A program made the position numbers and the translations under genes. Of a stretch of DNA of 24,000 bases, positions 8,506 through 22,693 are shown in pieces. This DNA is from Aeromonas lusitana (GTDB lineage: Bacteria > Pseudomonadota > Gammaproteobacteria > Enterobacterales > Aeromonadaceae). The stretch covers positions 48,634-72,633 of the forward strand of contig NZ_PGCP01000020.1 of assembly GCF_002812985.1 (NCBI RefSeq), given 5' to 3'. The notes under the pieces are model-generated. The model was not told where the DNA came from. It saw only the letters and a list, made by a program, of their open reading frames with translations, and made no database searches. Within the stretch, counting starts at the first letter, position 1. Each line of letters begins with the position of its first letter.

Positions 8506-10155
8506 ATGGCACAGCATCCTCACGCCGGCAAGCCGGCTCGTTTAAGCGACCTGACCAACATTCCCCGCCTGGTCAGCGCCTACTACCTGAACAAGCCGGA
8601 CATGAGCAGCCCAGAGCAGCGGGTGGCCTTCGGCACCTCCGGCCATCGCGGCAGCGCCCTGTACAGCGCCTTCAACGAATCCCATATCCTGGCGGTGACC
8701 CAGGCCCTGGTGGAGTATCGCCAGCAGGCCGGCATCACAGGGCCCCTGTTCGTCGGCATGGATACCCACGCCCTGTCTGAATCCGCCTTTGCCAGCGCGG
8801 TGGAAGTGCTGGCGGCCAATGGGGTCGAGACCCGCATCCAGGCCGGCCTTGGTTTCACGCCGACCCCGGTCATCTCCCACGCCATCCTGCGCCACAATGC
8901 TGGCAAGCCGGCGGCCCTGGCGGACGGCGTGGTGATCACCCCGTCCCACAACCCGCCGGAAGACGGTGGCTTTAAGTACAACCCGCCCCACGGCGGCCCC
9001 GCCGAGGGTGAGATCACCAAGTGGGTGGAAGACCGCGCCAACGCGATTCTGGAAGCGAACCTGGCTGGCGTGAAGCGGATGCCCTTTGCCGAGGCGCTGG
9101 CGAGTGAGCTGGTGGTCGAGCACGACTACGTCACCCCTTATGTGGACGATCTGGAGAACGTGCTGGATCTGGCGGCTATCAAGCGCGCTGGCATCAAGAT
9201 CGGGGTAGACCCCCTCGGCGGCTCCGGCGTCGCCTACTGGGATGTCATCGCCAAGCGTTACGATCTCGACATCGAGGTGGTCAACTACCGCGTCGATCCG
9301 ACCTTCTCCTTTATGACCCTGGACAAGGACGGCAAGATCCGGATGGACTGCTCCAGTCCGTTCGCCATGGCCGGCCTGATTGCGCTCAAAGACAAGTTCG
9401 ACATCGCCCTTGGCAACGATCCTGACTACGACCGTCACGGCATCGTCACCAAGGCCGGCCTGATGAACCCGAACCACTACCTGGCGGTGGCCATCCAGTA
9501 CCTGTTCACCCACAGAACCGGCTGGGCAAAAGAGGCCGCTGTCGGCAAGACGCTGGTCTCCTCCTCCATGATTGACCGGGTCGCCGGCGAGAGCGGTCGC
9601 ACCCTGAAAGAGGTGCCGGTCGGCTTCAAGTGGTTCGTTGACGGCCTCTACAGTGGCGAGTTCGGCTTCGGTGGTGAGGAGAGCGCGGGCGCCTCCTTCC
9701 TGCGCAAGGACGGCACCGTCTGGACCACCGACAAGGATGGCTTCATTCTGGCCCTTCTGGCCGCCGAGATCCTGGCCGTCACCGGCAAGGATCCCCAGGC
9801 CCACTACGATGCCCTGGAGGCCAAGTTCGGCCGCTCCAGCTATCGCCGCATCGATGCCCCGGCCAATGGCGCACAAAAAGCCGTGCTCTCCAAGCTGGAT
9901 CCGGCGCTGGTGGAAGCCTCCACCCTGGCAGGTGACCCCATCCTCGCCAAGCTGACCAAGGCTCCCGGCAATGATGCCGCCATCGGTGGTTTGAAGGTGG
10001 TGACCGAGCATGGCTGGTTCGCGGCGCGTCCTTCCGGCACCGAGTCCATCTACAAGATCTACATGGAGAGCTTCAAGGGCGAGGCACACCTGGACCTTAT
10101 TCAGCAGGAGGCTCAGCTGATCGTCTCCGCCGCCCTGGCCAAGGCCGGCGTCTAA
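8506..10155 (+). CDS. pgm: Phosphoglucomutase (alpha-D-glucose-phosphate specific)
   Basis: 549-aa ORF with the phosphoserine loop [16 protein letters not shown] and the GEESAG sugar-binding motif. AAGGAAA Shine-Dalgarno. Syntenic downstream of seqA. Confidence 0.97.
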
Positions 10156-10181
10156 GTCGTCTGCGACTCAACCCATGCGAA

Positions 10182-10209
10182 AGAGGAGCCCTGGTGGCTC
10201 CTCTTTTTT
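10182..10209 (+). terminator. Intrinsic terminator after pgm
   Basis: 9-bp stem: agaggagcc (10182-10190) pairs with ggctcctct (10196-10204), loop ctggt, followed by a T-run to 10209. Confidence 0.8.
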
Positions 10210-10227
10210 ATGCAGCTTTAGCAACAG

Positions 10228-11109
10228 CTAACCGTTGTCAGTTCTATCGGTGGCAGCCTTGCGGGTCTGCCAGCGTTTGAAGAAAGGGCGGGCCGGCAGC
10301 TTCATCAGGAATAGGGAAAGCAGGATCACCCCTATGCCGAGCCACTGGCGGCCATCCAGGCTCTCTCCCACCATGAGCACCCCGAGGGATACCGCCACCA
10401 TGGGGTTGGTGAGGGCCAGCATGCCCATCACCTCGGGGCCGTGGCGCTTGAGGCCCCACAGCCAGGCCCAGTAAGCCAGCGCCGTGTTGAGCAGGATTAG
10501 CCAGCCAAAGGCGGGGGCACTCGCCAGCTGAGGCATGGGCATGGGCCCTGCCAGCCACCAGGCCAGCGGGATCAGCATCAGGCCGCCGAGCAGCAGTTGC
10601 CAGGCGGTGAGGGCCAGCAGATCGCTCACCGGCCAGCGCTGCATCCAGCGGCTGGATTGGCCGATGAGCACGGTGGCGAGCAGGGCGCAGGCGACACCGA
10701 CGGGATCCAGGTTGGCGGAGGGGTTGAGCAGCAGCAAGACACCGGCCAGCCCCATCAGCCCCAGCAGCAGCCACTTGAGGGTCGGCCGCTTGCCATCCTG
10801 CAGCCAGGCCAGCGCCATCAGGATGAGCGGCAGGGTGGCGCCGAGGGTGCCCGCCACGGCGCCCGGCAGGCGGAAGGCTGCCACGAACAGCAGGGCGAAG
10901 AAGGCGGTGATGTTGCAAAATGCCAGCAGGAATTGGCGGCTCCAGGTGAGCGGCGGCCAGCGCGGATGCAGCAACAGCAGCAAGACGCCGGCGGGGAGCG
11001 CTCGCCACACCGCCACCCAGTAAGGGGAGTAGTCGGTCAGGTAGAGGCTGACGAGGGCATAGGTGCTGCCCCACAACAGGGGGGCGAGCAGGGCGATCAG
11101 CAGCGGCAT
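10228..11109 (-). CDS. EamA/DMT-family transporter
   Basis: About 10 hydrophobic helices in two EamA-like halves. It begins MPLLIALLAPLLWGSTYALV from ATG 11109. The longer track start (11148) would place the operator palindrome inside the coding sequence, so the shorter start is preferred. Confidence 0.88.
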   Translation of the reverse strand: MPLLIALLAPLLWGSTYALVSLYLTDYSPYWVAVWRALPAGVLLLLLHPRWPPLTWSRQFLLAFCNITAFFALLFVAAFRLPGAVAGTLGATLPLILMALAWLQDGKRPTLKWLLLGLMGLAGVLLLLNPSANLDPVGVACALLATVLIGQSSRWMQRWPVSDLLALTAWQLLLGGLMLIPLAWWLAGPMPMPQLASAPAFGWLILLNTALAYWAWLWGLKRHGPEVMGMLALTNPMVAVSLGVLMVGESLDGRQWLGIGVILLSLFLMKLPARPFFKRWQTRKAATDRTDNG

Positions 11110-11726: not shown

Positions 11727-12818
11727 TTAATAACTGCCTTTGGCATCTTTCACCGCAAGACCCAGCTGCCACACCGCCATGGCGTAGTGGGTGCTGTGGT
11801 TGTAGCGGGTGATGGCGTAGAAGTTCGGCAGGCCGTACCAGTATTGATAGCCGGTCCCCACGTCCAGACGCAGCAGGCTCGCCTCCTTGTGGTTGCCAAG
11901 GGAGGCGATGGGGGCGAGGCCGGCGCCGCGCAGGGTGGCGACCGGGTAGCGGGTCTGGAAGCCGTGTTCATAGCCGGGCAATTGGCCCTGGCCGCGCACC
12001 GCCACCGGTTGTCCCTTCTCCCAGCCGTGGGCTTTGAAGTAGTTCGCTACGCTGCCGATGGCATCCACCGGATCCCAGAGGTTGGTGTGACCGTTGCCGT
12101 TGAAGTCCACCGCATAGCTGCGAAAACTCGATGGCATGAACTGGCCATAGCCCATGGCGCCGGCGTAGGAGCCCTGCGGCTGTGCAGGATCCATGCCTTC
12201 GTCCCGGGTCATCACCAGGAAGGCTTCCAGCTCGCCGGTGAAGAACTCGGCCCGGCGCGGATAGTCAAACGCCAGGGTCGCCAGGGCATCCAGGATGCGG
12301 GTCTTGCCCATTACCCGACCCCAGCGGGTCTCCACCCCTATGATGCCGACGATGATCTCCGGCGGTACGCCGTAGATCTGTTGCGCCCGGTTGAGCTCGC
12401 TCTCGTATTCGCGCCAGAAGTTGACGCCGTTTTGCACATTGTCCGGGGTGATGAACTTGGCGCGATAGCGGTTCCAGGCCCCGGTCGGGCCGGTCGGCGG
12501 CGTGGTGGTCGGGGCCTGGGCATCCATCAGGCGGATGATCCAGTCGTAGCGCTGGGCCTGGGCCAGCACCTGGTGCAGCTCGGCGTTGTCAAAACCGTGC
12601 TTCTCGACCATGCGCTGCACGAACCTGTCCACGTTGGGGCGATTGGCGAAATCCCCCTTGCTGACTCCCTGGCTGTAGACCGGCTTGCTTGGCGGCGTCT
12701 GGTTGATGAAGGCGCTGTTGGGCTGTGGCTTGACCACGGGCTTGGGTGCCGGTGTGCTGCTGCAGCTCTGAATGAGCGGCAGGGCGGAGAGGGTGAGCAG
12801 GCAGACAAGGCGACGCAT
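11727..12818 (-). CDS. mltB: Membrane-bound lytic murein transglycosylase B
   Basis: 363-aa ORF with a lipoprotein signal and lipobox (LSALPLIQSC). It carries the SLT_2/MltB hallmarks YAGAMGYGQFMPSSF and a C-terminal AITRYNHSTHYAMAV. Confidence 0.94.
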   Translation of the reverse strand: MRRLVCLLTLSALPLIQSCSSTPAPKPVVKPQPNSAFINQTPPSKPVYSQGVSKGDFANRPNVDRFVQRMVEKHGFDNAELHQVLAQAQRYDWIIRLMDAQAPTTTPPTGPTGAWNRYRAKFITPDNVQNGVNFWREYESELNRAQQIYGVPPEIIVGIIGVETRWGRVMGKTRILDALATLAFDYPRRAEFFTGELEAFLVMTRDEGMDPAQPQGSYAGAMGYGQFMPSSFRSYAVDFNGNGHTNLWDPVDAIGSVANYFKAHGWEKGQPVAVRGQGQLPGYEHGFQTRYPVATLRGAGLAPIASLGNHKEASLLRLDVGTGYQYWYGLPNFYAITRYNHSTHYAMAVWQLGLAVKDAKGSY

Positions 12819-12913: not shown

Positions 12914-13519
12914 CTAGTCCCGCAAGGTGTGGTAACCGCTCCAGAGCCGGGTGAGTGTGGTGATGAAGCAGAGCAGGGCGAAGCCGTAGGCAAGCCACCC
13001 GAAGGCCGCGGGCCAGAGGCACATCAGCACGAACAGGGTGATGGTCTCGCTCCCCTCGGTGAGGCCGCCGAGATAGTAGAGGGACTTGTGGTGATAGACG
13101 GGGTTCTCGATCCCCCGTTTGCCCGCCATGATGGCGAAGGCCAGGAAACTCGAGCCCGTGCCCATGAAGGCGAACAGCAGGGTGGCGGCGGGCAGTGCGT
13201 TGGCGGGATCAGAGAGGGCAAAGCCTAGCACCACGGCGGCGTAGAAGATGAAGTCCAGCGTGATGTCGAGGAAGCCGCCGCAGTCTGTGATGCCGTTCTG
13301 GCGCGCCACGGCGCCGTCCAGCCCATCCAGCAGCCGATTGCAAAGAATGGCAATCAGGGCCCAGCCGTGCAGCCCCAGCGCCAGTAGCGGCAGGGCCAGC
13401 ATGCCGATGGCAAAGCCGACGAGGCTTATCTGGTTGGCGCTGACCCCGGCTCGGCACAAGGGAGTGGCCATGAGTGCCAGGGGGCGACGAAGAAGGGGAA
13501 TGATGCGGCTATCGAACAA
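12914..13519 (-). CDS. CDP-alcohol phosphatidyltransferase-family membrane protein (YnjF-like)
   Basis: 201-aa ORF with the family signature D-G-x2-A-R-x8-G-x3-D-x3-D, seen as DGLDGAVARQNGITDCGGFLDITLD. Several TM helices. TTG start at 13519 is preceded by GAGGAG, with an 8-nt gap after it. Confidence 0.87.
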   Translation of the reverse strand: MFDSRIIPLLRRPLALMATPLCRAGVSANQISLVGFAIGMLALPLLALGLHGWALIAILCNRLLDGLDGAVARQNGITDCGGFLDITLDFIFYAAVVLGFALSDPANALPAATLLFAFMGTGSSFLAFAIMAGKRGIENPVYHHKSLYYLGGLTEGSETITLFVLMCLWPAAFGWLAYGFALLCFITTLTRLWSGYHTLRD

Positions 13520-13521
13520 GG

Positions 13522-13608
13522 TCAGATCTCCTCATGTATGGGGGAAGTGGGGGGCATAAGGTCAAGAATGGCGCCCGGCGCATCCTCCTCATCGTGAGTG
13601 ACCGGCAT
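13522..13608 (-). pseudogene. Duplicated 3' fragment of the ABC ATPase gene (28-codon ORF MPVTHDEEDAPGAILDLMPPTSPIHEEI)
   Basis: Lies in repeat unit 1 and repeats the H-loop block VTHDEEDAPGAIL of the upstream ATPase. Whether it is translated is unknown. Confidence 0.4.
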
Positions 13609-13833
13609 GAGAGGGGATCTGTCATGGCGATCAGTCAAGGCCGAGTTTCTCTTTATCAGAGCAGGGGGTTGTCAGTGTCAGTATGGCGCCCGGTGCATCC
13701 TCTTCATCATGGGTGACCTGCATGAGAAGGGATCTGTCATGGCGATCAGTCAAGGTCGGGTTCCTCTTTATCAGAGCAGGGGGTTGTCAGTGCCAGTATG
13801 GCGCCCGGCGCATCGTCCTCGTCGTGGGTTACC
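13568..13833. repeat. Tandem direct repeat, period 115 bp, 2 full units plus a 36-bp partial third unit
   Basis: Units at 13568-13682 and 13683-13797 are identical at 105 of 115 positions (counted by hand). The third copy (13798-13833) is the genuine 3' end of the ATPase CDS. Confidence 0.92.
13631..13723 (-). pseudogene. Duplicated 3' fragment of the ABC ATPase gene (30-codon ORF MQVTHDEEDAPGAILTLTTPCSDKEKLGLD)
   Basis: Lies in repeat unit 2 and mirrors the real C-terminus ...VTHDEDDAPGAILALTTPCSDKEEPDLD. No obvious Shine-Dalgarno. Confidence 0.4.
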
Positions 13834-14420
13834 AGGATGGCCGGGATCCGGCGCGCGGCGATACGCTCGAACACCAGGGTGCGAAACGCGGCTCGCAGCG
13901 GCTTGTCGAGGCGCGAGAAGGGTTCGTCCAGCAGCAGGGCCCGGGGTTCGGCGAGCAGGGCACGCAGCAAGCTGACGCGTGCCTTCTGACCGCCGGAGAG
14001 CTGGCCGGGCAGCATGTCCGCCTGATCCACAAGCCCCACCTCGCCGAGCGCCGCCAGCGCGGCGGCCCGCCGGACGGCCATCCCCTTGAGATAAGCCGGC
14101 ATGCCAAACATCAGGTTCTCCGCCACCGTCAGGTGAGCGAACAGCAGATCCTCCTGAAACAACATGCCGATCTGCCTCTGCTGGGGCGGCAGAGTGGTGA
14201 GTGGCCGCTCACCGAGCCAGAGCTCGCCATCCAGCCTGAAAGGGCCCCTCCCTGTTAAAGAGCCGGGCAAGACCCCCGCCAGCGCCGCCAGCAAGGAGCT
14301 CTTGCCGCAGCCGCTCGGCCCCATCAGGGTCAGCACCTCGCCGGGGGCGACCGCCAGCGGCGGCAGATGGAGCAGGGGCTTGCCGTGCAGGCTCAGGGTG
14401 AGGGCGCCGGTTTTCAACAT
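13746..14420 (-). CDS. ABC transporter ATP-binding protein (short, YnjD/ThiQ-like)
   Basis: Walker A GPSGCGKSS, signature LSGGQKARVSL, Walker B LLLDEPFS, H-loop VTHD. The start ATG 14420 overlaps the permease stop (ATGTTGA coupling). The longer track ORF (to 14690) is an upstream read-through artefact. Confidence 0.92.
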   Translation of the reverse strand: MLKTGALTLSLHGKPLLHLPPLAVAPGEVLTLMGPSGCGKSSLLAALAGVLPGSLTGRGPFRLDGELWLGERPLTTLPPQQRQIGMLFQEDLLFAHLTVAENLMFGMPAYLKGMAVRRAAALAALGEVGLVDQADMLPGQLSGGQKARVSLLRALLAEPRALLLDEPFSRLDKPLRAAFRTLVFERIAARRIPAILVTHDEDDAPGAILALTTPCSDKEEPDLD

Positions 14421-16078
14421 GACTCGTGTCTCGTGGCTGGGTTGATACGGCCCGGCAGCCAGAGTACCAGGGCATACACGCAAAGTGGCAGCAGCAGTTG
14501 CAGCAGGCCATAGAGCCCCGCCAGCCGCCGGTTGAGGCCGCTGCCGATGGCTACCGCCTCCGTGGTGATGGTGACGACGCGACCGGCGCCAAACAGCAGG
14601 GTCGGCAGGTACTGCGCCAGGCTCACCGCGGCGCCGACCCCGAAGGCGAACAGCAGGGGGCGCGCCAGCAGGGGGGCCTTCACCCGCCACCAGGCCCGCC
14701 AGGGGCTGGCGCCAAGCAGCAGGGCCGCCTGTGCGATACGAGGGTCAAATTGACGATAGGGGCCGTGCAGGCAGAGATAGACATAGGGCGCCACGAACAA
14801 CAGCTGGCTCCAGAGCACCCAGCCCCAGCCGATGCCATCTCCCTGCCACCCGGCGCCGAGCCAGTCCACTTGCAGCCGCAGCCCGAACAGCAGGCTGGCC
14901 TGGGGCAGCAGCAGCGGCAAACAGATGAGCCAGAGCGGCCAGGGGCGCCTGTCTTGCTGCGCCTCCAGGCTGAGCACCACCAGCAGGAGTGACAGGCCGG
15001 CGCTCGCGATGGCGAGCAGCAGGCTCTGCCCGAGCAGGGGGCCCAGGCTGGGCAACAGATCCAGCCAGTAACGGGCACTCCACTGGGTCGGCAACAGCGC
15101 CGGGAAGGACCAGCGCCGGGTCAGGGACCAGAGCAGCAGGCTGGCCAGCACCAGCAGATTGATGATAAGCAGCCCCCAGATGGCTGACGCCGTCAGGGCG
15201 CCGGCGAGGGCAGAGGGGGCCGCCCGCCGACCATTGAGGCTATGTGCCTTACCCATGTTCAGATGAACCCATTCCAGCAACCTGAGCCCAGCCAGCAGCA
15301 AGAGGTTGGCGGCCAGCAGCAGCAGGGCGCCGCTGGCACAGGCGCCGCGCCAGTGCAGATCCGGGTCCTGATACCAGAGCCAGAGCCGCACCGCCAGGGT
15401 GGGCGGCGCATCGGGCCCCAGTAGCTGGGCGAGATCCACCACCCCCAGGCCATAGGCCGCCACCGCATAGAGCGGCAGGCGCAGGGCGGGCCAGAGCGCG
15501 GGCAGCAGCAGGCGCCACCAGACTTGAGGCCCACAAAAGCCCAGGGTGTGGCCGAGCCATTGCTGGCGAGCCACCCGGGCAGGATCCTGCGCCGCGAGGG
15601 CCATCAGCAGCAGAAACGGCGTCTCCTTGAGGATGAGGGCGACGATGAGCCCGAGTCCGAGCGGGTCTTTCAGGGTCTGCCAGTCGGGGGGGAGATCGGC
15701 AAAACCGAGTACAGGGGCGAGCAGGCGCAGCAGCCAGCCTGAGGGGGCGAGCAGGAAGGCAAAGCCGATGGCGAAGGCGACGTGGGGCAGGGCCAGCAAG
15801 GGGGAGAGCAGGCGGCGCAAGCGCGCCATCCAGCGGCTGCCCTCGCCGTGAGCGAGCAGCAAGGCAGTCAGCAGCAGGGCCCCCAGGGTCGAGGCAGCCG
15901 CTACCCAGAGGCTCAGCCCCAGGGAGTGCCAGAGCCCGGGCTGACTCAGCAGCAGGCGCAGGTTGTCGGCGGCCATGCCCTCGATCAGCAGCAGTAGCAA
16001 GCCACCGACGAGCGGTGCGGCCAGCAGCAGGCCACAGGAAAGCAGCAAGAGCAGGCGTCCCGAACCCCAGCTGTTCAT
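14414..16078 (-). CDS. ABC transporter permease, double-domain (YnjC/ThiP-like)
   Basis: 554-aa, highly hydrophobic, about 12 TM helices in two permease halves. Its ATG overlaps the stop of the binding-protein gene (ATGA at 16078). Confidence 0.92.
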   Translation of the reverse strand: MNSWGSGRLLLLLSCGLLLAAPLVGGLLLLLIEGMAADNLRLLLSQPGLWHSLGLSLWVAAASTLGALLLTALLLAHGEGSRWMARLRRLLSPLLALPHVAFAIGFAFLLAPSGWLLRLLAPVLGFADLPPDWQTLKDPLGLGLIVALILKETPFLLLMALAAQDPARVARQQWLGHTLGFCGPQVWWRLLLPALWPALRLPLYAVAAYGLGVVDLAQLLGPDAPPTLAVRLWLWYQDPDLHWRGACASGALLLLAANLLLLAGLRLLEWVHLNMGKAHSLNGRRAAPSALAGALTASAIWGLLIINLLVLASLLLWSLTRRWSFPALLPTQWSARYWLDLLPSLGPLLGQSLLLAIASAGLSLLLVVLSLEAQQDRRPWPLWLICLPLLLPQASLLFGLRLQVDWLGAGWQGDGIGWGWVLWSQLLFVAPYVYLCLHGPYRQFDPRIAQAALLLGASPWRAWWRVKAPLLARPLLFAFGVGAAVSLAQYLPTLLFGAGRVVTITTEAVAIGSGLNRRLAGLYGLLQLLLPLCVYALVLWLPGRINPATRHESC

Positions 16079-17271
16079 CAGTGGCCGTAGCGTGCGGCCC
16101 AGGCCGCTTCCAGCCGCAGCTGCCAGCTGGGATGGGGTTCGGCCAGTGCCTTGAAGCGCAGGGCCGGGGCCGTGCCCTTGGGCAGGGCATCCCTTCGCAA
16201 GACGCTGGGATCGCCCCAGACGGCGACGTCGGCCTTGCGGGCCTGAGCGGCGGGGCTCAGCAGGAAGTTCGCCACCACCAGGGCGCTGGCCCGGGCGTTG
16301 GCGTTGAAGGGAATGGCGAGGAAGTGGCTGTTGGTCAGCGCCCCCTTGGCCATGGCGATGGCCTTGACGCCCGGCGGCAGGGTGCCGTTTTGCACCGAGC
16401 TTTGGGCCTCAGAGGGGTTGAAGCTGATGGCCATGGCGAGCTCGCCGTCATCCAGCAGTTGCTTGGTCTCGGCGGCGCCTGCCGGGAATAGCTTGCCCTT
16501 GCGCCAGAGCGCGGGATGGAGTGCATCGAGCCAGGCCCAGAGGGGCGCACTCAGACGTTCGAACTCTGCATCTGTCGCTTCTTGGTAGAGATGCGTGGGA
16601 TCTGGCGTCAACTCCAGCAGGATCTGCTTGAGAAAGCTCGAACCATGAAATTGTGGCGGCTTGGGATAAGTAAAGCGGCCGGGGTGGGTCTGGGCCCAGG
16701 CCAGCAGGGCCGCCGCCGAGGTCGGGGGCGTGCCGACCTCCTCTTCATTGACCATCAGATTGAGCTGCCCTATGCCCCAGGGGGCCTCCAGTCCCTCGAC
16801 CGGCACGGTGAAGTCCTGGTTGACCGGCAACTGTTGATCCACCAGAGCCATGTTGGGCAGATCGCCGGTGAAGGGCGCCCCCAGCAGCTGTTTGTCCTTG
16901 AGCGCCTTGAAGTTCTCGCCATTGACCCAGAGCAGGTCGATGGGGCTGCCGCTCTTCTTGCCTGCCTGCTGGTTGGCGAGCAACTGGCTGACGCTCTGGG
17001 CGATGTCATCCACCTTTACCTGCACCAGCTTGACCCCGTATTGGCGCTGGATCTCAGCGCTGGCCCACTGGAGGTAGGCGTTGATCTCCGGGCTGCCGCC
17101 CCAGGCGTTGAAGTAGACGGTCTGGCCGCGGGCCTCGCTCAGGGTCTGCTGCCAGCGCTCTGCTGCCGGTGGCGCCTCCTTTGCCTGCAGCCCGGGAGCC
17201 ATCAGGGTGCTGGCCAGCAACAGCAAACCTGGCAAGGGGTGGAGCAGGGCGCGAAGCCGGGTCTTGAACAT
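16078..17271 (-). CDS. Periplasmic substrate-binding protein of the ABC transporter (YnjB-like)
   Basis: From ATG 17271 it reads MFKTRLRALLHPLPGLLLLASTLMAPGLQA/KE (Sec signal), followed by an SBP-like sequence of about 370 aa. The N-terminal extension in the track ORF (to 17769) overlaps the upstream gene and is rejected. Confidence 0.9.
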   Translation of the reverse strand: MFKTRLRALLHPLPGLLLLASTLMAPGLQAKEAPPAAERWQQTLSEARGQTVYFNAWGGSPEINAYLQWASAEIQRQYGVKLVQVKVDDIAQSVSQLLANQQAGKKSGSPIDLLWVNGENFKALKDKQLLGAPFTGDLPNMALVDQQLPVNQDFTVPVEGLEAPWGIGQLNLMVNEEEVGTPPTSAAALLAWAQTHPGRFTYPKPPQFHGSSFLKQILLELTPDPTHLYQEATDAEFERLSAPLWAWLDALHPALWRKGKLFPAGAAETKQLLDDGELAMAISFNPSEAQSSVQNGTLPPGVKAIAMAKGALTNSHFLAIPFNANARASALVVANFLLSPAAQARKADVAVWGDPSVLRRDALPKGTAPALRFKALAEPHPSWQLRLEAAWAARYGH

Positions 17272-17294
17272 GTGATGACCTCTTGCAAATGGGA

Positions 17295-19469
17295 TCAGGC
17301 GCCGCGGCGCCAAGCGTGATAACGAGCCAGCCAGGGCAGCAGGCGTGTGGGCTGATGGGCCCGTTGCCACTCTCCTGCCAGGTATTTGTTCCCCTCCACC
17401 AGGGTGGGATAGGGATGGATGGTGGCCAGGATCTTGCGAAGCCCGAGCCCATGGCGCATGGCCAGCACGAACTCGGCGAGCCGCTCGCCGGCGTGAGGGC
17501 CCACAATGGTTGCCCCCAGGATCCTGTCCTTGCCCGGCACCGTCAGCACCTCCACAAACCCCTGCCGCTCGCCGTCGGCGATGGATCGGTCGAGCTCTGC
17601 CATCTCGAAGCGGGTCACTTCGAAAGGAATGCCTCGCGCACTGGCCTCGCGCCGGTTCAATCCCACCCGGGCTATCTCGGGGCTGGTGTAGGTGGCGGCC
17701 GGGATCACCCGATAGTCCGCCCGAAAGCGCTTGAAGGGGCTGAACAGGGTATTGACCGCCGCGTACCAACCCTGATGGGCCGCCACATGGGTGAACTGAT
17801 AGGGACCGGCCACGTCCCCCACCGCCAGCAGGCTGGGATAGGGGGTGGCGAGATACTCATCGACCGCCAGGGTGCCGTCCGGCGAGAGGGGCACTCCCAG
17901 CGCTTCCAGTCCGAAGCCGCTGACGTTGGCGACCCGGCCTAGGGCCAGCAGCAGCTGATCCCCCTCCAGCAGCAGCTGCTCGTCATCACGGCGCAGGTGC
18001 AATCGAATGGGCCACTGGCTTGGTTCGTCCTCGGGCTCGCTCTCGGCCTTTGGCAGATAATCTACCCGCTCGGCGCGCCAGCCGGTGAGTACCTGCACAC
18101 CGTCTGCCACCATCCGGGCCTGCAACAGATCAGCGACGTCGCGCTCTTCCCTTGGCAGCAGCTGATCCGCCAGCTCCACCAGGGTGACCTGGATGCCGAG
18201 CAGGGCCAGGCTCTGGGCCAGCTCGCAGCCGATGGGGCCGCCGCCCAGCACCAGCAGGTGGCGCGGCGCCTCGCGCAGCTGCCAGAGGTTGTCCGAGGTG
18301 AGGTAGGGAACCTCCGTCAGGCCCGGCAGGTTCGGCACCCTGGGCCGGGCGCCGGTGGCGATGACGATATGGCGGGCGGACAGGCGCTGGCCACCCACCT
18401 CGACCTCCCAGGGGGAGACGAGGCGGCCGGTGCCTTGGATGCACTCCACCCCCAGCCCCTGGTAGCGTTCTACCGAGTCGTGGGGCTCGACGGCCTTGAT
18501 CACCTCGGCCACCCGTGCCATCACGGCGGCAAAATCGGCTCTGGAGTGGGCAGGCGTGAAGCCCAGTTCGGCGGCGCGGCGCTGCTCAAAGGCGAAGCGA
18601 GCGCTTCGGATCAGCGCCTTGGAGGGGACGCAGCCGGTATGGAGGCAATCCCCGCCCATCCTGTGCTGCTCGATGAGCCCGACCCTGGCCTTGACCGCCG
18701 CCGCGATATAGCTGGTCACCAGGCCACCGGCCCCTGCGCCTATGACCAGCAGGTTGTAGTCGAAGCGTTCGGGTTTGCGGTAGGGGGCGTGCAGGCGGCG
18801 CAGGGCGAGGCGCGCCATCAGATGTTTCATCAGCCAGGGCATAAGCCCCAGCAGGGTCAACGCCAGGATGAGACCGGGGGAGAGGATGTTGCCCGTGCTG
18901 GTGAGGGTGGCGAGCTCCGAGCCCGCCAGCACGTAGACGAAGGTGCCGGGCAGCATGCCGAGCTGGCTCACCCAGAAGTAGGTGCTGACTCTGATGGGGG
19001 TGAGCCCCATCAGCAGGTTGACCAGAAAGAAGGGGAAGAGGGGAATGAGGCGCAGGCTCAGCAGGTAGAAGGCGCCATCCTTTGCCATCCCCTGCTCGAA
19101 TTGGGCCAGCCTGTCGCCAAAGCGGGTCCTGACCCAGTCTCGCAGCAGGAAGCGGGCGCTGAGCATGGCGAGCGTCGCGCCGAGGGTGCTGGCAAAGGAG
19201 ACCAGCAAGAGCCCCCAGCCGATACCGAACACGGCGCTGCCCGCCAGGGTCAACAGGCTGGCACCGGGCAGGGAGAGGGCCGTGCTCACGACATAGATGA
19301 GCAGGTATAAGAGGGCGGCTTCGAGGAAGTGTGCCTGCACCCAGGTCAAGATCTGCAGCTGACGGGCCTGCAACTCGGCGAGGCTCAGGTAGCGGCCGAG
19401 ATCCAGGGCAAAGAAGGTAGCGATCAACCCAAGGATAAGTAGCAGCAATATAAGGCGAGGACGACTCAT
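17295..19469 (-). CDS. Fusion protein: N-terminal DedA/TVP38-TMEM64 membrane domain plus C-terminal class I FAD pyridine-nucleotide-disulfide oxidoreductase
   Basis: The first 220 aa or so are polytopic (LRLIPLFPFFLVNLLMG is DedA/SNARE-associated-like). Then come the FAD fold LLVIGAGAGG, the redox-active disulfide GGDCLHTGCVPSK, the NAD fold LLVLGGGPIGCE, and the C-terminal dimerisation motif HPYPTLVE. Confidence 0.92.
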   Translation of the reverse strand: MSRPRLILLLLILGLIATFFALDLGRYLSLAELQARQLQILTWVQAHFLEAALLYLLIYVVSTALSLPGASLLTLAGSAVFGIGWGLLLVSFASTLGATLAMLSARFLLRDWVRTRFGDRLAQFEQGMAKDGAFYLLSLRLIPLFPFFLVNLLMGLTPIRVSTYFWVSQLGMLPGTFVYVLAGSELATLTSTGNILSPGLILALTLLGLMPWLMKHLMARLALRRLHAPYRKPERFDYNLLVIGAGAGGLVTSYIAAAVKARVGLIEQHRMGGDCLHTGCVPSKALIRSARFAFEQRRAAELGFTPAHSRADFAAVMARVAEVIKAVEPHDSVERYQGLGVECIQGTGRLVSPWEVEVGGQRLSARHIVIATGARPRVPNLPGLTEVPYLTSDNLWQLREAPRHLLVLGGGPIGCELAQSLALLGIQVTLVELADQLLPREERDVADLLQARMVADGVQVLTGWRAERVDYLPKAESEPEDEPSQWPIRLHLRRDDEQLLLEGDQLLLALGRVANVSGFGLEALGVPLSPDGTLAVDEYLATPYPSLLAVGDVAGPYQFTHVAAHQGWYAAVNTLFSPFKRFRADYRVIPAATYTSPEIARVGLNRREASARGIPFEVTRFEMAELDRSIADGERQGFVEVLTVPGKDRILGATIVGPHAGERLAEFVLAMRHGLGLRKILATIHPYPTLVEGNKYLAGEWQRAHQPTRLLPWLARYHAWRRGA

Positions 19470-20101
19470 GGCAGCGGTTTATCCTGCCGGGGAGGGGTGA
19501 CCTGCTCGGTTGTCGGGTCGACGGCGCCTGTGGTATCCGGCGCCGCACTCCGCTCGGGCTGCACCGGCAGTTGGCAGAAGCCCTGAGGCGCTATGTCGAG
19601 GGCGGCATTGAACTTGGCGGACATGTTCTGGAAGGCGATGAGGCCGGTCAGCTCCACCAGACTGTCGTCATCGAACCAGGGCTTGAGGCGCAGCGCCTGC
19701 TCGTCGCTCACCCCGTCCAGCCCGGTCATGGCCTCGGCGTAGTCGAGCACGGCCCGCTCCCGCTCATCGAACAGGGGGCTGGTGCGCCAGTTCGCCAGCG
19801 CTTCTACCTTGGCGCTGGAGCCCGCCCGCTTGATGAGCGTCATGGCGTTGATGTCGACGCAAAAGCGGCACCAGTTGAGCTGGGAGACCCGCACAGTGAC
19901 CAGGGAGCGCAGCACGGGATCGATGGGAGAGCGCTTGCGGTTGATGACCCCGTACAGGGTGGCCACGGCGGCAAACAGGCGCGGCGAGCGGCCCCAGCAC
20001 TTGCCGGGGATCAGCACCTGGCCGTAGTTGCGCTGCTGCAGCCAGAAGAAGGGGCGGATAAACCAGGCATATTCCCGGTCGGGCTTCACCTCGATGCGCA
20101 T
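19466..20101 (-). CDS. Carboxymuconolactone decarboxylase/AhpD-like family protein (YnjA-like)
   Basis: 211-aa ORF with the CMD-type CxxC region (QLNWCRFCVDIN). Its stop overlaps the downstream start (ATGA at 19466-19469). Confidence 0.88.
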   Translation of the reverse strand: MRIEVKPDREYAWFIRPFFWLQQRNYGQVLIPGKCWGRSPRLFAAVATLYGVINRKRSPIDPVLRSLVTVRVSQLNWCRFCVDINAMTLIKRAGSSAKVEALANWRTSPLFDERERAVLDYAEAMTGLDGVSDEQALRLKPWFDDDSLVELTGLIAFQNMSAKFNAALDIAPQGFCQLPVQPERSAAPDTTGAVDPTTEQVTPPRQDKPLP

Positions 20102-20108
20102 CTTGACC

Positions 20109-20795
20109 TCAGTATTTCAGATTGGGTTTGTAGGCCTGCCCGAGGCGCTCGCTCAGGCGGATCAGGAAGTCCTGAATACGCGCCCGGTTGGCCCCCAGAT
20201 CGCTGCGTCCCTGACGGGAAGCGGATCGCATATCGACCCGGGTCTCCTTGGGACCGGCGAAGACCCGCAGCGCCACGTCATCCTCGAAGCCGAACCAGGG
20301 GCTGGTGACCACGGCATTGAGGCCGCCTGGCGTCTCCATGACGCGCCAGCCCAGCTCAGTCATCAGCTCCTCGGCCTCGGCGAGCACCTCGTCTGGCGAG
20401 GCATGGGTATAGAGAGGACCGGGGTTGTTGGCAAATGCTTGCAAGGGGGCGGCATTGATGGGCAGATCCTGCGCCGTTCTGAGCTGTTCGGCCCACTGCA
20501 GGCGAGGGGGGTGGTAGGGATCCGTGCTGACGTCGTTGATGAGCGGCGCGCGCAGCGCCTGCACCAGGAACAGCAGGGGCAGCAGCATGGGCACTATGCC
20601 CCACAGATCCGGCCACAGGTTGGTGGTGCGACGACGGCGCCAGGGCAGGCGCAGCAAGAGGCCAAGCCCTATCAGGGCGCTGGCCAGACAGAGGGTGAAA
20701 CCGACCCACCAGGGCCAGAGATGGATGCGGCTGCCGAGGGCGCCAGTGAGGGGCAGCAACCAGGCCAGCAGGGGCCACCACAAATAGCTGGGCAT
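20109..20795 (-). CDS. DUF1499-family protein with N-terminal transmembrane segments
   Basis: 228-aa ORF with three hydrophobic helices, then a soluble domain ending FGFEDDVALRV...VDMRSASRQGRSDLGANRARIQDF, which is typical of DUF1499. It ends 7 nt before the next gene. Confidence 0.83.
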   Translation of the reverse strand: MPSYLWWPLLAWLLPLTGALGSRIHLWPWWVGFTLCLASALIGLGLLLRLPWRRRRTTNLWPDLWGIVPMLLPLLFLVQALRAPLINDVSTDPYHPPRLQWAEQLRTAQDLPINAAPLQAFANNPGPLYTHASPDEVLAEAEELMTELGWRVMETPGGLNAVVTSPWFGFEDDVALRVFAGPKETRVDMRSASRQGRSDLGANRARIQDFLIRLSERLGQAYKPNLKY

Positions 20796-20845: not shown

Positions 20846-21385
20846 TTGACTGATAACGTTAGTAAATTTATCTATCTCCTGCTGCTTTTCGCCGTCCGTC
20901 CCTTGTGGGCCGACAGCGCCGTGCTGGCGGCGGGGGACATGTGGCGAGCCGAGGCAGCCTTTGAGGCCATGGTGGGGGTCAGCCGGGTGGAGACGGGATA
21001 TGCGAGCCCGCCGGATGGGAGCGAAGCGCGCCGTCAGGCGGTGCGGGTGCATTTTGACAACCGGCGCCTTGGTTATGGCGATCTGCTCGGCCGTTTCTGG
21101 CAACTGGTGGATGGAGATGATGGGGAGGGGCAGTATTGCAATCGGGGCAAGGGGTTCGCTCCGGCGCTTCTGCCCCAGAGTGATTACCAGTGGCGTCTGG
21201 CCGAGGCGAGCCTGGCGCGCTGGCGAGCACTCCATGGCCGGGAGAGTCGGGTCTCCTTCTGGCCACAGAGCCAATTCACGCCAGCCCCCGAGATGGAAGA
21301 CTGGGCCAGCCGTCACCCCTGGCGTTTCGGGGTCTATGCCCGGCGTTGTGGTGGCTGGCCCCTGCCTGAGGTGAGCCGTCCCTGA
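20846..21385 (+). CDS. Secreted MsrA-fold protein lacking the catalytic GCFWG cysteine (putative pseudoenzyme)
   Basis: TTG start with an AAGGA Shine-Dalgarno 9 nt upstream. Signal peptide KFIYLLLLFAVRPLWA/DS. Manual alignment to E. coli MsrA: AAGDMWRAEAAFEAMVGVSRVETGY versus [25 protein letters not shown], and LLGRFWQLVD versus LLQVFWENHD. Confidence 0.72.
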   Translation: MTDNVSKFIYLLLLFAVRPLWADSAVLAAGDMWRAEAAFEAMVGVSRVETGYASPPDGSEARRQAVRVHFDNRRLGYGDLLGRFWQLVDGDDGEGQYCNRGKGFAPALLPQSDYQWRLAEASLARWRALHGRESRVSFWPQSQFTPAPEMEDWASRHPWRFGVYARRCGGWPLPEVSRP

Positions 21386-21776: not shown

Positions 21777-22157
21777 TCAGGCTTGCATGTCTGCGGTCAG
21801 CCGCACCCTGGCGCGCGATTGCCACAGGATCTCCAGCCCCAGCAGGGCATAGAGGCTCCAGATGGCCAAAGGATTGAGCCAGTCGCCCCCCAATTGCAGG
21901 GTGAGCAGGGCGCCGCCGACCAGCAGCAAGCTGATGCCGGGCAGACGCCAGTGAGCGGGCAGGGGGGCCAGCATGGCCAATCCCAGCAGTAGGGCCAGGC
22001 CGAAGGGCAGGTTGAGGGCGGTGAAGGCCAGTGCCTGCTGGCCGCTCATGCCGGTCAGCAGGGCCAGCATGGCACTGCAGCAGGCCAGAAAGGTGATGAA
22101 CTCGAGCCTGTCGGCGATGTAATCAGCCAGCTGTTCGCTACGCATGGGCATGGGCAT
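21777..22157 (-). CDS. Hypothetical small inner-membrane protein (3-4 TM helices)
   Basis: 126-aa ORF with alternating hydrophobic stretches. No motif recognised. Confidence 0.6.
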   Translation of the reverse strand: MPMPMRSEQLADYIADRLEFITFLACCSAMLALLTGMSGQQALAFTALNLPFGLALLLGLAMLAPLPAHWRLPGISLLLVGGALLTLQLGGDWLNPLAIWSLYALLGLEILWQSRARVRLTADMQA

Positions 22158-22262
22158 GGTCTCCTTCGATTGATGTTACCAGTGTGGGGCAGGGCAGCGC
22201 CAAGTGGCAGCGGGATAAATCGATTGGATTAAACGAAGCTTTCAGCTAACCAATTCAAGTTA

Positions 22263-22290
22263 TTGATTTAAGTTTATTTTCCTGTTCAAT
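22263..22290 (+). promoter_or_regulatory. Candidate sigma70 promoter at the edge of the GC-rich block upstream of tamA
   Basis: TTGATT (22263-22268), 16-nt spacer ending in TG, then TTCAAT (22285-22290). The predicted start near 22297 coincides with the abrupt switch from AT-rich to GC-rich sequence. Pattern only. Confidence 0.3.
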
Positions 22291-22693
22291 AGCAGAGTGT
22301 GGTGTGCGCGCCGCAAGCGCAGGGATGTCAAGGCGCTCTTCGGGCCCTTGACCCCAATGGGAAGTGCCACCCGACACGGTCTGTCGCGTGCTGTCAGTGG
22401 CAGAAAGACGGGGCGGCGGCCCGCTTGGGAAGATGCTCATACGCGGCTGCGCTGCTTTTTTGTACCCCATTGCCGAGAGAGTGCGCACTTTTCTCCCGCC
22501 GGCGGGGGATTTTCCCGCGCGGTGTGCAACGAGCGGGGAGCGCGGTGCCAGAATAGGGGTGACTGAGCGGGGGGATCCCGCTGCGGTCGCGTCCGGGGTT
22601 ATGCTAGGATGAGCGGCGCTTGCTCGGCAGTAAGCCTCACTATCATTCTATTTAATACAGTCTTTTAATCATGTTATTCGGGGAAATTGACGT

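Follow-up and report, generated by a model that had tools for sequence, protein, structure and literature searches.

What does an envelope locus that Escherichia coli carries as a row of uncharacterised y-genes look like in other bacteria, and what could it do there? The question is raised by seven genes at positions 12,914 to 20,795 of a 24-kb stretch of the Aeromonas lusitana genome (hereafter the window: 24,000 nucleotides of contig NZ_PGCP01000020.1, guanine-cytosine content ~63%), which an original prediction made from the sequence had taken for a ynj-like cluster rebuilt around a membrane-tethered disulfide reductase. Our answer to its first part is that Aeromonas has here its own form of an envelope system that is widespread and is represented in E. 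coli by ydjXYZ-ynjABCD(E)/ynjF. The locus type and the architecture of the fusion protein encoded in it were known already; the Aeromonas arrangement is new.

Seven minus-strand open reading frames (ORFs) fill the interval 20795..12914, every one at the coordinates listed below, and an independent gene call on the source contig returned identical genes, except for a start 16 codons later in the last one. The tight packing first described is there: 7 nt separate the first two genes, the second and third overlap by 4 nt (ATGA), 23 nt lie between the third and fourth, overlaps of 1 nt (TGATG) and 7 nt follow, and a spacer of 226 nt precedes the last gene. These lengths match those first given, but the 1-nt overlap had been spelled ATGA, and its letters read TGATG. 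Judged by the 4-nt, 1-nt, and 7-nt overlaps, the genes look translationally coupled. The family names proposed at the outset agree with the Pfam and NCBIfam families, and all assignments pass their Pfam thresholds bar that of the permease (23.9 bits against a cut-off of 26.4), which we uphold because of its homology to YnjC, PhnU, and PhnV.

20795..20109, minus strand: DUF1499 protein, first gene, 228 aa (PF07386, 79.9 bits)
20101..19466, minus strand: YnjA homologue of the AhpD/CMD family, 211 aa (PF02627, 46.4 bits against a cut-off of 23)
19469..17295, minus strand: DedA::FAD disulfide reductase fusion, whole gene, 724 aa
18810..19469, minus strand: DedA/VTT domain of the fusion, about residues 1-220, of the YdjX/YdjZ type (COG0398, TVP38/TMEM64; PF09335, 77.8 bits against a cut-off of 33.9)
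17295..18764, minus strand: reductase domain of the fusion, residues 236-724 (Pyr_redox_2, PF07992, 187 bits; Pyr_redox_dim, PF02852, 95 bits)
17271..16078, minus strand: YnjB-family periplasmic substrate-binding protein (SBP_bac_8), 397 aa, with a signal peptide
16078..14414, minus strand: YnjC-family double permease of the binding-protein-dependent type, 554 aa, ~12 hydrophobic segments
14420..13746, minus strand: YnjD-family short ATPase of an ATP-binding cassette (ABC) transporter, 224 aa (PF00005, 98 bits)
13519..12914, minus strand: YnjF homologue, CDP-alcohol phosphatidyltransferase (CDP-OH_P_transf), 201 aa, TTG start with a GAGGAG Shine-Dalgarno sequence (PF01066, 40.1 bits against a cut-off of 22)

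The annotated order in E. coli K-12 is ydjX (DedA), ydjY, ydjZ (DedA), ynjA, ynjB, ynjC, ynjD, and ynjE, with ynjF convergent (b1750-b1758); the gene list given in the original prediction lacked ydjX, ydjY, and ydjZ, the immediate upstream neighbours of ynjA. We judged orthology by synteny together with pairwise BLASTP identity, and the homology that had been proposed is borne out along the whole ynjABCD and ynjF set: 50% for YnjA, 48% over 367 aa for YnjB, 34% and 46% for the two segments of YnjC that match, 50% for YnjD, and 61% over 198 aa for YnjF, while YnjB also scores 514 bits against a cut-off of 203 with its own model (NF008633/PRK11622). With the DedA domain of the fusion, YdjX shares 37.5% identity and YdjZ 36.7%; they were the only proteins to match it in a comparison confined to the E. 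coli locus. Because YdjX and YdjZ are DedAs within the E. coli operon and are 37% identical to the N-terminus of the fusion, DedA is a shared core part of both loci. The DedA-reductase and the DUF1499 protein had been described as gains of the Aeromonas cluster: this stands for the fused reductase and for DUF1499, which do differ from E. coli, but not for DedA.

The two forms are alike in several respects. The importer genes ynjBCD have the same order, a DedA of the YdjX/YdjZ type adjoins ynjA (in Aeromonas as a domain, not as a separate gene), YnjA keeps its CxFC, and YnjF keeps its catalytic motif. They also differ: E. coli has two separate DedA genes and YdjY, without a reductase domain; the rhodanese YnjE is present there and DUF1499 absent; the order is DedA-YnjA, whereas it is YnjA-DedA in Aeromonas; and ynjF, convergent in E. 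coli, is co-directional in Aeromonas and translationally coupled to ynjD in relatives of the source strain. A tblastn search of the window found no match to YnjE (a three-domain rhodanese) or YdjY, in agreement with the rhodanese-free cluster first described. In E. coli, ydjXYZ-ynjABCD is listed as a single FNR-activated operon by Myers et al. 2013 (PMC3688515). A search for FNR boxes in the 50-bp divergent promoter region upstream of the Aeromonas cluster found no site, so control by FNR in the style of E. coli cannot be transferred to it.

Conservation of the neighbourhood across bacteria

Is the arrangement a peculiarity of one strain? In Aeromonas, all seven genes are found in the same order between ppiC and mltB-marR-eamA-pgm; A. 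veronii has this order too, as do a relative at 92% identity and three metagenome contigs, and the fusion protein is 80-92% identical to proteins in many Aeromonas species. This arrangement is not chance. To follow it further we used two scans, one anchored on the fusion (80 species genomes, 10-kb neighbourhood) and one anchored on YnjF (80 metagenome loci), which together yielded 160 related loci; counts around YnjF refer to the 29 loci flanked by 8 kb or more on each side, and those around the fusion, whose neighbours were clustered and annotated by NCBIfam and Pfam, to the 45 loci with at least 7 kb on each side.

The adjacency is conserved beyond the source strain, not only in Aeromonas relatives but also in other proteobacterial orders. 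YnjF and/or YnjBCD lie within 10 kb of the fusion in ~15 of the 80 fusion loci, spread over Vibrionaceae, Halomonadaceae, Betaproteobacteria, and Alphaproteobacteria. Grimontia has fusion-YnjBCD-YnjF as five tightly packed genes, betaproteobacterial loci have the order YnjBCD-YnjF-fusion, a Paraglaciecola-type contig reads fusion-DUF547-YnjBCD-YnjF with DUF1499 3 kb downstream, and further fusion loci with ynj genes occur in Halomonas, Rhodospirillales, and Allorhizobium. Seen from YnjF, YnjB, YnjD, and a DedA accompany it together in 23 of the 29 long loci, and a DedA in 25. The accessories are less constant (fused reductase 12/29, YnjA 15/29, YnjE 13/29, DUF1499 4/29, YdjY 2/29), and the reductase and the pair YnjA plus YnjE are almost mutually exclusive, with Aeromonas-type loci the only ones to hold the reductase and YnjA together. 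We therefore have high confidence that the recurrent core, COG0398 DedA + YnjBCD + YnjF, is a real module. For redox chemistry it is joined by the fused reductase or, alternatively, by YnjA with YnjE; DUF1499 and a secreted MsrA-like protein accompany it only occasionally, the former recurring near fusion-ynj loci outside Aeromonas (L039, L062, L146, L149, L169, L170). This core, shared across orders, is apparently undescribed in the searchable literature.

Contrary to what had been supposed, the fusion itself is no local rebuild. Full-length fusions of ~700-750 aa number in the dozens among the best 150 cluster representatives at 50% identity, and NCBI names the protein 'bifunctional TVP38/TMEM64 family protein/FAD-dependent oxidoreductase'. 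Todor, Herrera, and Gross (2023, mBio, PMC10127716) give COG0398 DedA with PF07992/PF02852 as the commonest fusion of that subfamily, to which they also assign YdjX and YdjZ. The domain architecture of those fusions is identical to that of the Aeromonas protein; the latter differs in being embedded in a ynj operon. In the passages of that paper reached by term searches there is no link to YnjBCD, YnjF, YnjA, DUF1499, or ArsS-type genes.

A different layout is visible in eight enterobacterial-type metagenome loci (L095, L113, L120, L122, L125, L129, L131, L139; ~9440-10600), in which ynjA lies immediately upstream of ynjF and co-directional with it, so that ynjA is tied to the lipid enzyme, while DedA-ynjBCD-ynjE converge from the opposite side.

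The proteins and what their families suggest

Which activities could such a module combine? By its motifs, the reductase domain reads as a canonical class I pyridine-nucleotide disulfide oxidoreductase of the Lpd/GR/MerA group, with FAD and NAD(P) Rossmann motifs and a dimerisation domain: GAGAGG at 244, GGDC275LHTGC280 from 272, GGGPIG at 409, and HPYPTLVE at 685, with the redox-active pair C275/C280 nearly invariant in 35 diverse fusions. Alignment to Lpd and MerA structures shows that the Glu of its VTLVE, in the NAD site, matches the VTLIE of NADH-type Lpd, where MerA has LMQR, and that its His-Glu dyad, HPYPTLVE, resembles HPHPTLSE of Lpd and differs from APYLTMAE of MerA. Cysteines occur only at 275, 280, 343, and 415, leaving no C-terminal pair. 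Every specific NCBIfam model scores the domain below its cut-off, including that of Lpd (TIGR01350, 341 bits against 408.8), and there is no lipoyl carrier in the cluster. Because it lacks the C-terminal Cys pair and falls below all specific models, the reductase is not MerA and is apparently no true Lpd or GR either. MerA had been a candidate identity, which we rejected on its score (TIGR02053, 331.6 bits against 454), on the missing C-terminal Cys pair, and on His685, kept where MerA has APYLT. A linker rich in lysine and arginine past the last hydrophobic segment places the reductase, by prediction, in the cytoplasm.

YnjA has no predicted transmembrane segment, is cytoplasmic, and its stop overlaps the start of the fusion gene by 4 nt. 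Its CRFC at residues 78-81 belongs to an invariant CxFC, C78 and C81 aligning with the Cys pair of E. coli; the AhpD core-domain model TIGR00778 is borderline (27.1 against a cut-off of 27.8). In mycobacteria, AhpD is reduced via lipoamide (DlaT) and Lpd. The Aeromonas cluster is similar to this relay in that a CMD/AhpD CxxC protein is encoded, with a 4-nt overlap, beside an Lpd-like class I reductase, an arrangement compatible with electron flow from NADH to FAD, to the reductase dithiol, and to the CxxC. It is different in that it has neither AhpC nor a lipoyl carrier, the reductase is tethered to the membrane through DedA, YnjA falls under the AhpD-type NCBIfam cut-offs, and its pairing with the reductase is limited to Aeromonas.

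The binding protein belongs to a broad class. The AlphaFold2 (AF2) model of YnjB (predicted local distance difference test, pLDDT, 87) has as its nearest folds PhnS-like proteins, PotD, FbpA, MctA, and AfuA at 13-19% identity, its profile matches to Protein Data Bank (PDB) sequences are marginal, and no close relative is solved. Both halves of YnjC match permease models of the PhnU/PhnV type, while YnjD has Walker A, signature, and Walker B motifs and finds its best NCBIfam neighbours in ThiQ and PhnT. One protein from ENA (P0284, 574 aa) holds CMD (PF02627) and SBP_bac_8 in a single ORF, either a YnjA::YnjB fusion or a read-through; its topology would be odd, joining a cytoplasmic CxxC protein to a periplasmic binding protein.

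YnjF shares with PIPS, the archaetidylinositol-phosphate synthases, and AF2299/DIPPS the catalytic motif and the six-helix core: D65-x2-D68-G69-x2-A72-R73...G81-G82-x2-D85-x3-D89 is invariant in 10 homologues, hydropathy gives 4 to 6 hydrophobic segments (6 overlapping peaks), and the nearest solved relatives are AF2299, DIPPS, and PIPS (E 1e-8 to 1e-5 against PDB chains). It differs from PIPS and AIPS in scoring far under the family cut-offs of the phosphatidylinositol-phosphate and archaetidylinositol-phosphate synthases (NF040950/NF045883, 59 bits against 180 and 41 against 170). These scores and motifs make YnjF a separate subfamily, its active site intact. For the membrane-anchored DUF1499 protein, AF2 gives helices at 3-23, 29-49, and 61-82, and hydropathy a loop with 5 lysines or arginines between transmembrane segments; hydropathy and charge together suggest that its C-terminal alpha/beta domain is probably periplasmic. 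The weak likeness of this domain, in a model of medium confidence (pLDDT 70), to KA1, the AMPK-alpha C-terminal domain, and BamC-N (E ~1e-4) is only a hint. Searches of PDB sequences with single sequences of YnjB, DUF1499, and YnjF found no match.

As to DedA, Todor et al. (PMC10127716) propose that the COG0398 members are phospholipid scramblases, by analogy with TMEM41B and VMP1, and not undecaprenyl-phosphate flippases. COG0398 DedAs are the closest bacterial relatives of these two human scramblases.

A possible route and its rivals

Could these parts form one route? A small polar compound, captured by YnjB in the periplasm, would be imported through YnjCD. Electrons would pass, at the cytoplasmic face of the membrane, from NADH through FAD to C275/C280, in Aeromonas probably via the CxxC of YnjA, and the compound, likely one bearing S, Se, or As, or a disulfide, would be reduced or kept reduced. 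YnjF would then join it, as the alcohol acceptor, to a CDP-activated lipid (CDP-diacylglycerol), giving an unusual phospholipid, which the DedA domain, as a putative scramblase, would move across the inner membrane to the outer leaflet, where the periplasmic DUF1499 domain may handle it. We propose this route as a whole tentatively, as a possibility that falls somewhat short of even. The import, thiol redox, and unusual phospholipid, possibly with S or Se, guessed at in the original prediction are plausible, sharpened though not proven by the other genomes. A vague conserved-hypothetical locus is in this way turned into a concrete and testable hypothesis of import, reduction, lipid attachment, and flipping, for which Aeromonas and E. 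coli provide two genetically tractable variants.

A number of observations weigh against it. First, the mechanism rests on guilt by association. Second, profile and fold searches with YnjB reach only the broad PhnS/PotD/FbpA class, from which no ligand can be inferred. Third, ~65 of the 80 fusion loci have no ynj gene within 10 kb. Fourth, some Alphaproteobacteria have YnjBCD by itself (Oceanibaculum, Breoghania, and a JGI contig, where both DedA and YnjF are missing), so the importer has a use independent of YnjF. Fifth, ynjF is convergent to the E. coli operon, not inside it, and in the source strain the 226-nt duplicated spacer uncouples it from ynjD. Finally, YnjA lies beside the fusion in no locus outside Aeromonas in the fusion-anchored scan; a relay from reductase to YnjA is therefore not general.

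The stand-alone importers also favour a reading restricted to sulfur scavenging, in which YnjBCD imports thiosulfate, an organic disulfide, a persulfide, or the like, reduction or trans-sulfuration falls to YnjA with YnjE (enterics) or to YnjA with the tethered reductase (Aeromonas), and DedA and YnjF have a separate role in membrane homeostasis. In enterics the locus includes the rhodanese YnjE, the reductase and YnjA+YnjE look like alternatives, and a CxxC AhpD-like protein with an Lpd-like reductase makes a redox relay of known type. Yet YnjF, which this reading sets aside, is the tightest-linked partner: its start overlaps the ynjD stop in relatives, Grimontia and Paraglaciecola-type loci have it tightly grouped with the fusion and YnjBCD, it stays with the fusion where a NupC transporter replaces YnjBCD, and DedA is present in 25 of the 29 long YnjF loci. 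The permease and the ATPase, moreover, are closer to importers of phosphonate, thiamine, and polyamines than to CysTWA. We regard it as rather unlikely that sulfur scavenging is the whole of the function.

Where, then, should the substrate of the proposed route be sought? The neighbours of the fusion in other taxa offer a direction. In the 45 long fusion loci, the recurrent ones are the radical S-adenosylmethionine enzyme ArsS (TIGR04167, 12/45), the 'arsenosugar biosynthesis glycosyltransferases' TIGR04283 (15/45) and TIGR04282 (11/45), the 'N-terminal-to-SelD' oxidoreductase TIGR03169 (11/45), ArsM-like methyltransferases (4/45), DUF3047, DUF547, and an extracytoplasmic function (ECF) sigma factor. 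YnjF is found in 8/45, the ArsS and YnjF sets being disjoint, and 30/45 hold at least one partner family (arsenic-type set, ynj-type, NupC, DUF1499, or MsrA-like). Halomonas sp. GFAJ-1 has YnjB-YnjC-YnjD-TIGR04283-TIGR04282-fusion-TIGR03169 on one strand (L164:9001-17273), the three tested TIGR families above their curated cut-offs. In four Sphingomonadales-type loci a NupC/CNT nucleoside transporter lies directly upstream of YnjF, in the importer slot of YnjBCD:

L021:5244-6449: NupC-like transporter
L030:12103-13377: NupC-like transporter, in the fusion-YnjF interval
L039:6604-7884: NupC-like transporter, in the fusion-YnjF interval
L170:11476-12759: NupC-like transporter, in the fusion-YnjF interval

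By adenosylating arsenic, ArsS yields a nucleoside analogue (Cheng et al. 2021, cited in PMC12159101). The ArsS-type neighbours, the GFAJ-1 array, the NupC replacement, and this product together suggest a nucleoside-like or sugar-like cargo, possibly one containing a metalloid, and the link between fusion and ArsS suggests where the substrate might be looked for. The searchable literature holds no description of the fusion as a hub linking ynj-type and ArsS-type loci, which is apparently new, nor any functional study on ynj genes, DUF1499, DUF2064/DUF547/DUF3047/TIGR0428x, or DedA with arsenosugar.

These neighbours are also the case for a pathway of organo-metalloid (As/Se) compounds in which the fusion is the hub of two supply routes, either synthesis by ArsS, ArsM, TIGR04283, and TIGR04282 or uptake of a preformed, nucleoside-like or sugar-like organo-As/Se compound by transporters of the YnjBCD or NupC type; the reductase would keep the metalloid reduced, and YnjF would join the sugar-alcohol with CDP-diacylglycerol to make a lipid akin to an arsenosugar phospholipid. 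It would account for the recurrence of ArsS-type genes in loci disjoint from those with YnjF, for the single-strand array of GFAJ-1, for NupC in the importer position, and for the nucleoside-like product of ArsS; the best NCBIfam match of YnjA is a 'YciW-related (seleno)protein' model, but under its cut-off. Although the fusion family frequently adjoins arsenosugar gene sets in other taxa, neither the window nor the E. coli locus has a gene for ArsS, ArsM, TIGR04283, TIGR04282, or TIGR03169, and ArsS-bearing and YnjF-bearing loci are disjoint in the sample, which sets the cluster apart from such sets. Also counting against it, the 'arsenosugar' names of TIGR04282 and TIGR04283 are presumably based on context and not on experiment, no paper was found that ties these genes to DedA, YnjF, or YnjBCD, and the NupC replacement is confined to one clade with 4 loci. 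On balance we find a metalloid pathway unlikely.

A stricter version is more of a long shot. DedA(COG0398) + YnjBCD (or NupC) + YnjF could be the salvage and lipidation branch of a widespread organo-metalloid (As/Se) sugar or nucleoside pathway of bacteria whose de novo branch is ArsS, ArsM, TIGR04283, and TIGR04282. If so, YnjF would be the missing phosphatidyltransferase for arsenosugar-type phospholipids, DedA the scramblase of those lipids, and the reductase the part that holds the metalloid in a reactive reduced state, and both the ynj locus of E. coli and the DedAs of COG0398 would gain a first function. Two observations on these neighbourhoods are worth recording. In GFAJ-1, the 'arsenic-life' strain, the ynj importer is directly joined to genes named for 'arsenosugar biosynthesis'. 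A radical S-adenosylmethionine gene directly upstream of YnjB in L168 had an ArsS-like look and was dropped, as it matched no NCBIfam family.

Lipid could be the starting point of the route as well as its product. YnjBCD might re-import a periplasmic fragment of a head group or lipid precursor (an amino-alcohol, a phosphonate, or a glycerophospho compound), which YnjF would re-attach while DedA re-equilibrates the leaflets, the redox proteins merely guarding against oxidative damage. This fits the nearest relatives of the binding protein, permease, and ATPase, which are systems for 2-aminoethylphosphonate, polyamines, and thiamine, as well as those of YnjF, which transfer inositol phosphate. 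It also fits the putative scramblase role of COG0398 DedAs (PMC10127716) and the mild induction of ynjABCD upon BaeR overexpression reported by Bury-Moné et al. (PMC2731931). It leaves unexplained, however, both the consistent attachment of a disulfide reductase or rhodanese and the link to ArsS-type loci, and neither Aeromonas nor E. coli has a known head group that would be a candidate. We consider such recycling improbable, to about the same degree as the metalloid pathway.

That the genes are chance neighbours or share regulation only, without forming a single functional system, could be argued from the variation of the locus by lineage, in which YnjA, YnjE, YdjY, DUF1499, and the MsrA-like gene come and go, but this is effectively refuted by the conservation data, the core trio recurring in several distinct gene orders and at least four proteobacterial orders where a single-copy family within 10 kb by chance is expected well below 1% per locus, and the overlapping start and stop codons arguing for co-translation.

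The duplicated spacer and the flanking genes

How did ynjF come to lie 226 nt from ynjD in this strain? The repeat noted in this spacer is real:

13568..13833, no strand: tandem duplication at the junction of the ynjD 3' end and the ynjF 5' end, 115 bp in 2.3 copies

Tandem Repeats Finder (TRF) scores the 115-bp unit at 441 with 89% matches. The repeat copies re-encode the C-terminal 28-30 residues of the ATPase (82% and 60% identity), and the spacer also holds a degraded version of the opening codons of the ynjF-like gene; the gene junction itself, from the ynjD 3' end to the ynjF 5' start, has therefore been duplicated in tandem. Both genes remain intact. Relatives preserve ancestral and intermediate states, with a variable copy number: the ynjD stop overlaps the ynjF TTG start in L083, the gap is 16 nt in A. 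veronii, and the 92%-identical relative (L171) has a 110-nt spacer with one unit fewer (1.3 copies). From this comparison, ynjF belongs to the operon genus-wide, and the duplication has broken its translational coupling in the source strain. A role of the spacer as terminator or attenuator was considered and rejected, its RNA folding being unremarkable (z = -0.93).

Scans of the window against Rfam and for tRNAs found no match, and a promoter and terminator scan gave a number of sites not above that in shuffled sequence. A stretch of ~0.5 kb (22160..22650), upstream of a small membrane-protein gene (21777..22157), contains neither a convincing ORF nor an Rfam or tRNA match.

Upstream of the cluster, beyond the coordinates covered by the original prediction, lies one further gene of interest, divergent from the DUF1499 gene and with 50 bp between the two start codons:

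20846..21385, plus strand: MsrA-like secreted protein (PF01625, 54.6 bits)

Its catalytic Cys is replaced by Asp (GDMW against GCFW). The gene is confined to this sublineage, being present in the window and in L171 and absent in A. veronii. Fusion-YnjF pairs in L035, L062, L136, and L150 are flanked by divergent MsrA-like genes in which the canonical Cys is present; the protein of the window is a possible lineage-specific accessory.

At the other end, 95 nt past the ynjF-like gene, on the same strand and with no predicted terminator between, an MltB-like lytic transglycosylase (SLT_2) is encoded at 11727..12818 (minus strand). The mltB-like gene may be co-transcribed with the cluster, and it holds the same place in the Aeromonas loci inspected (L002, L171, L172).

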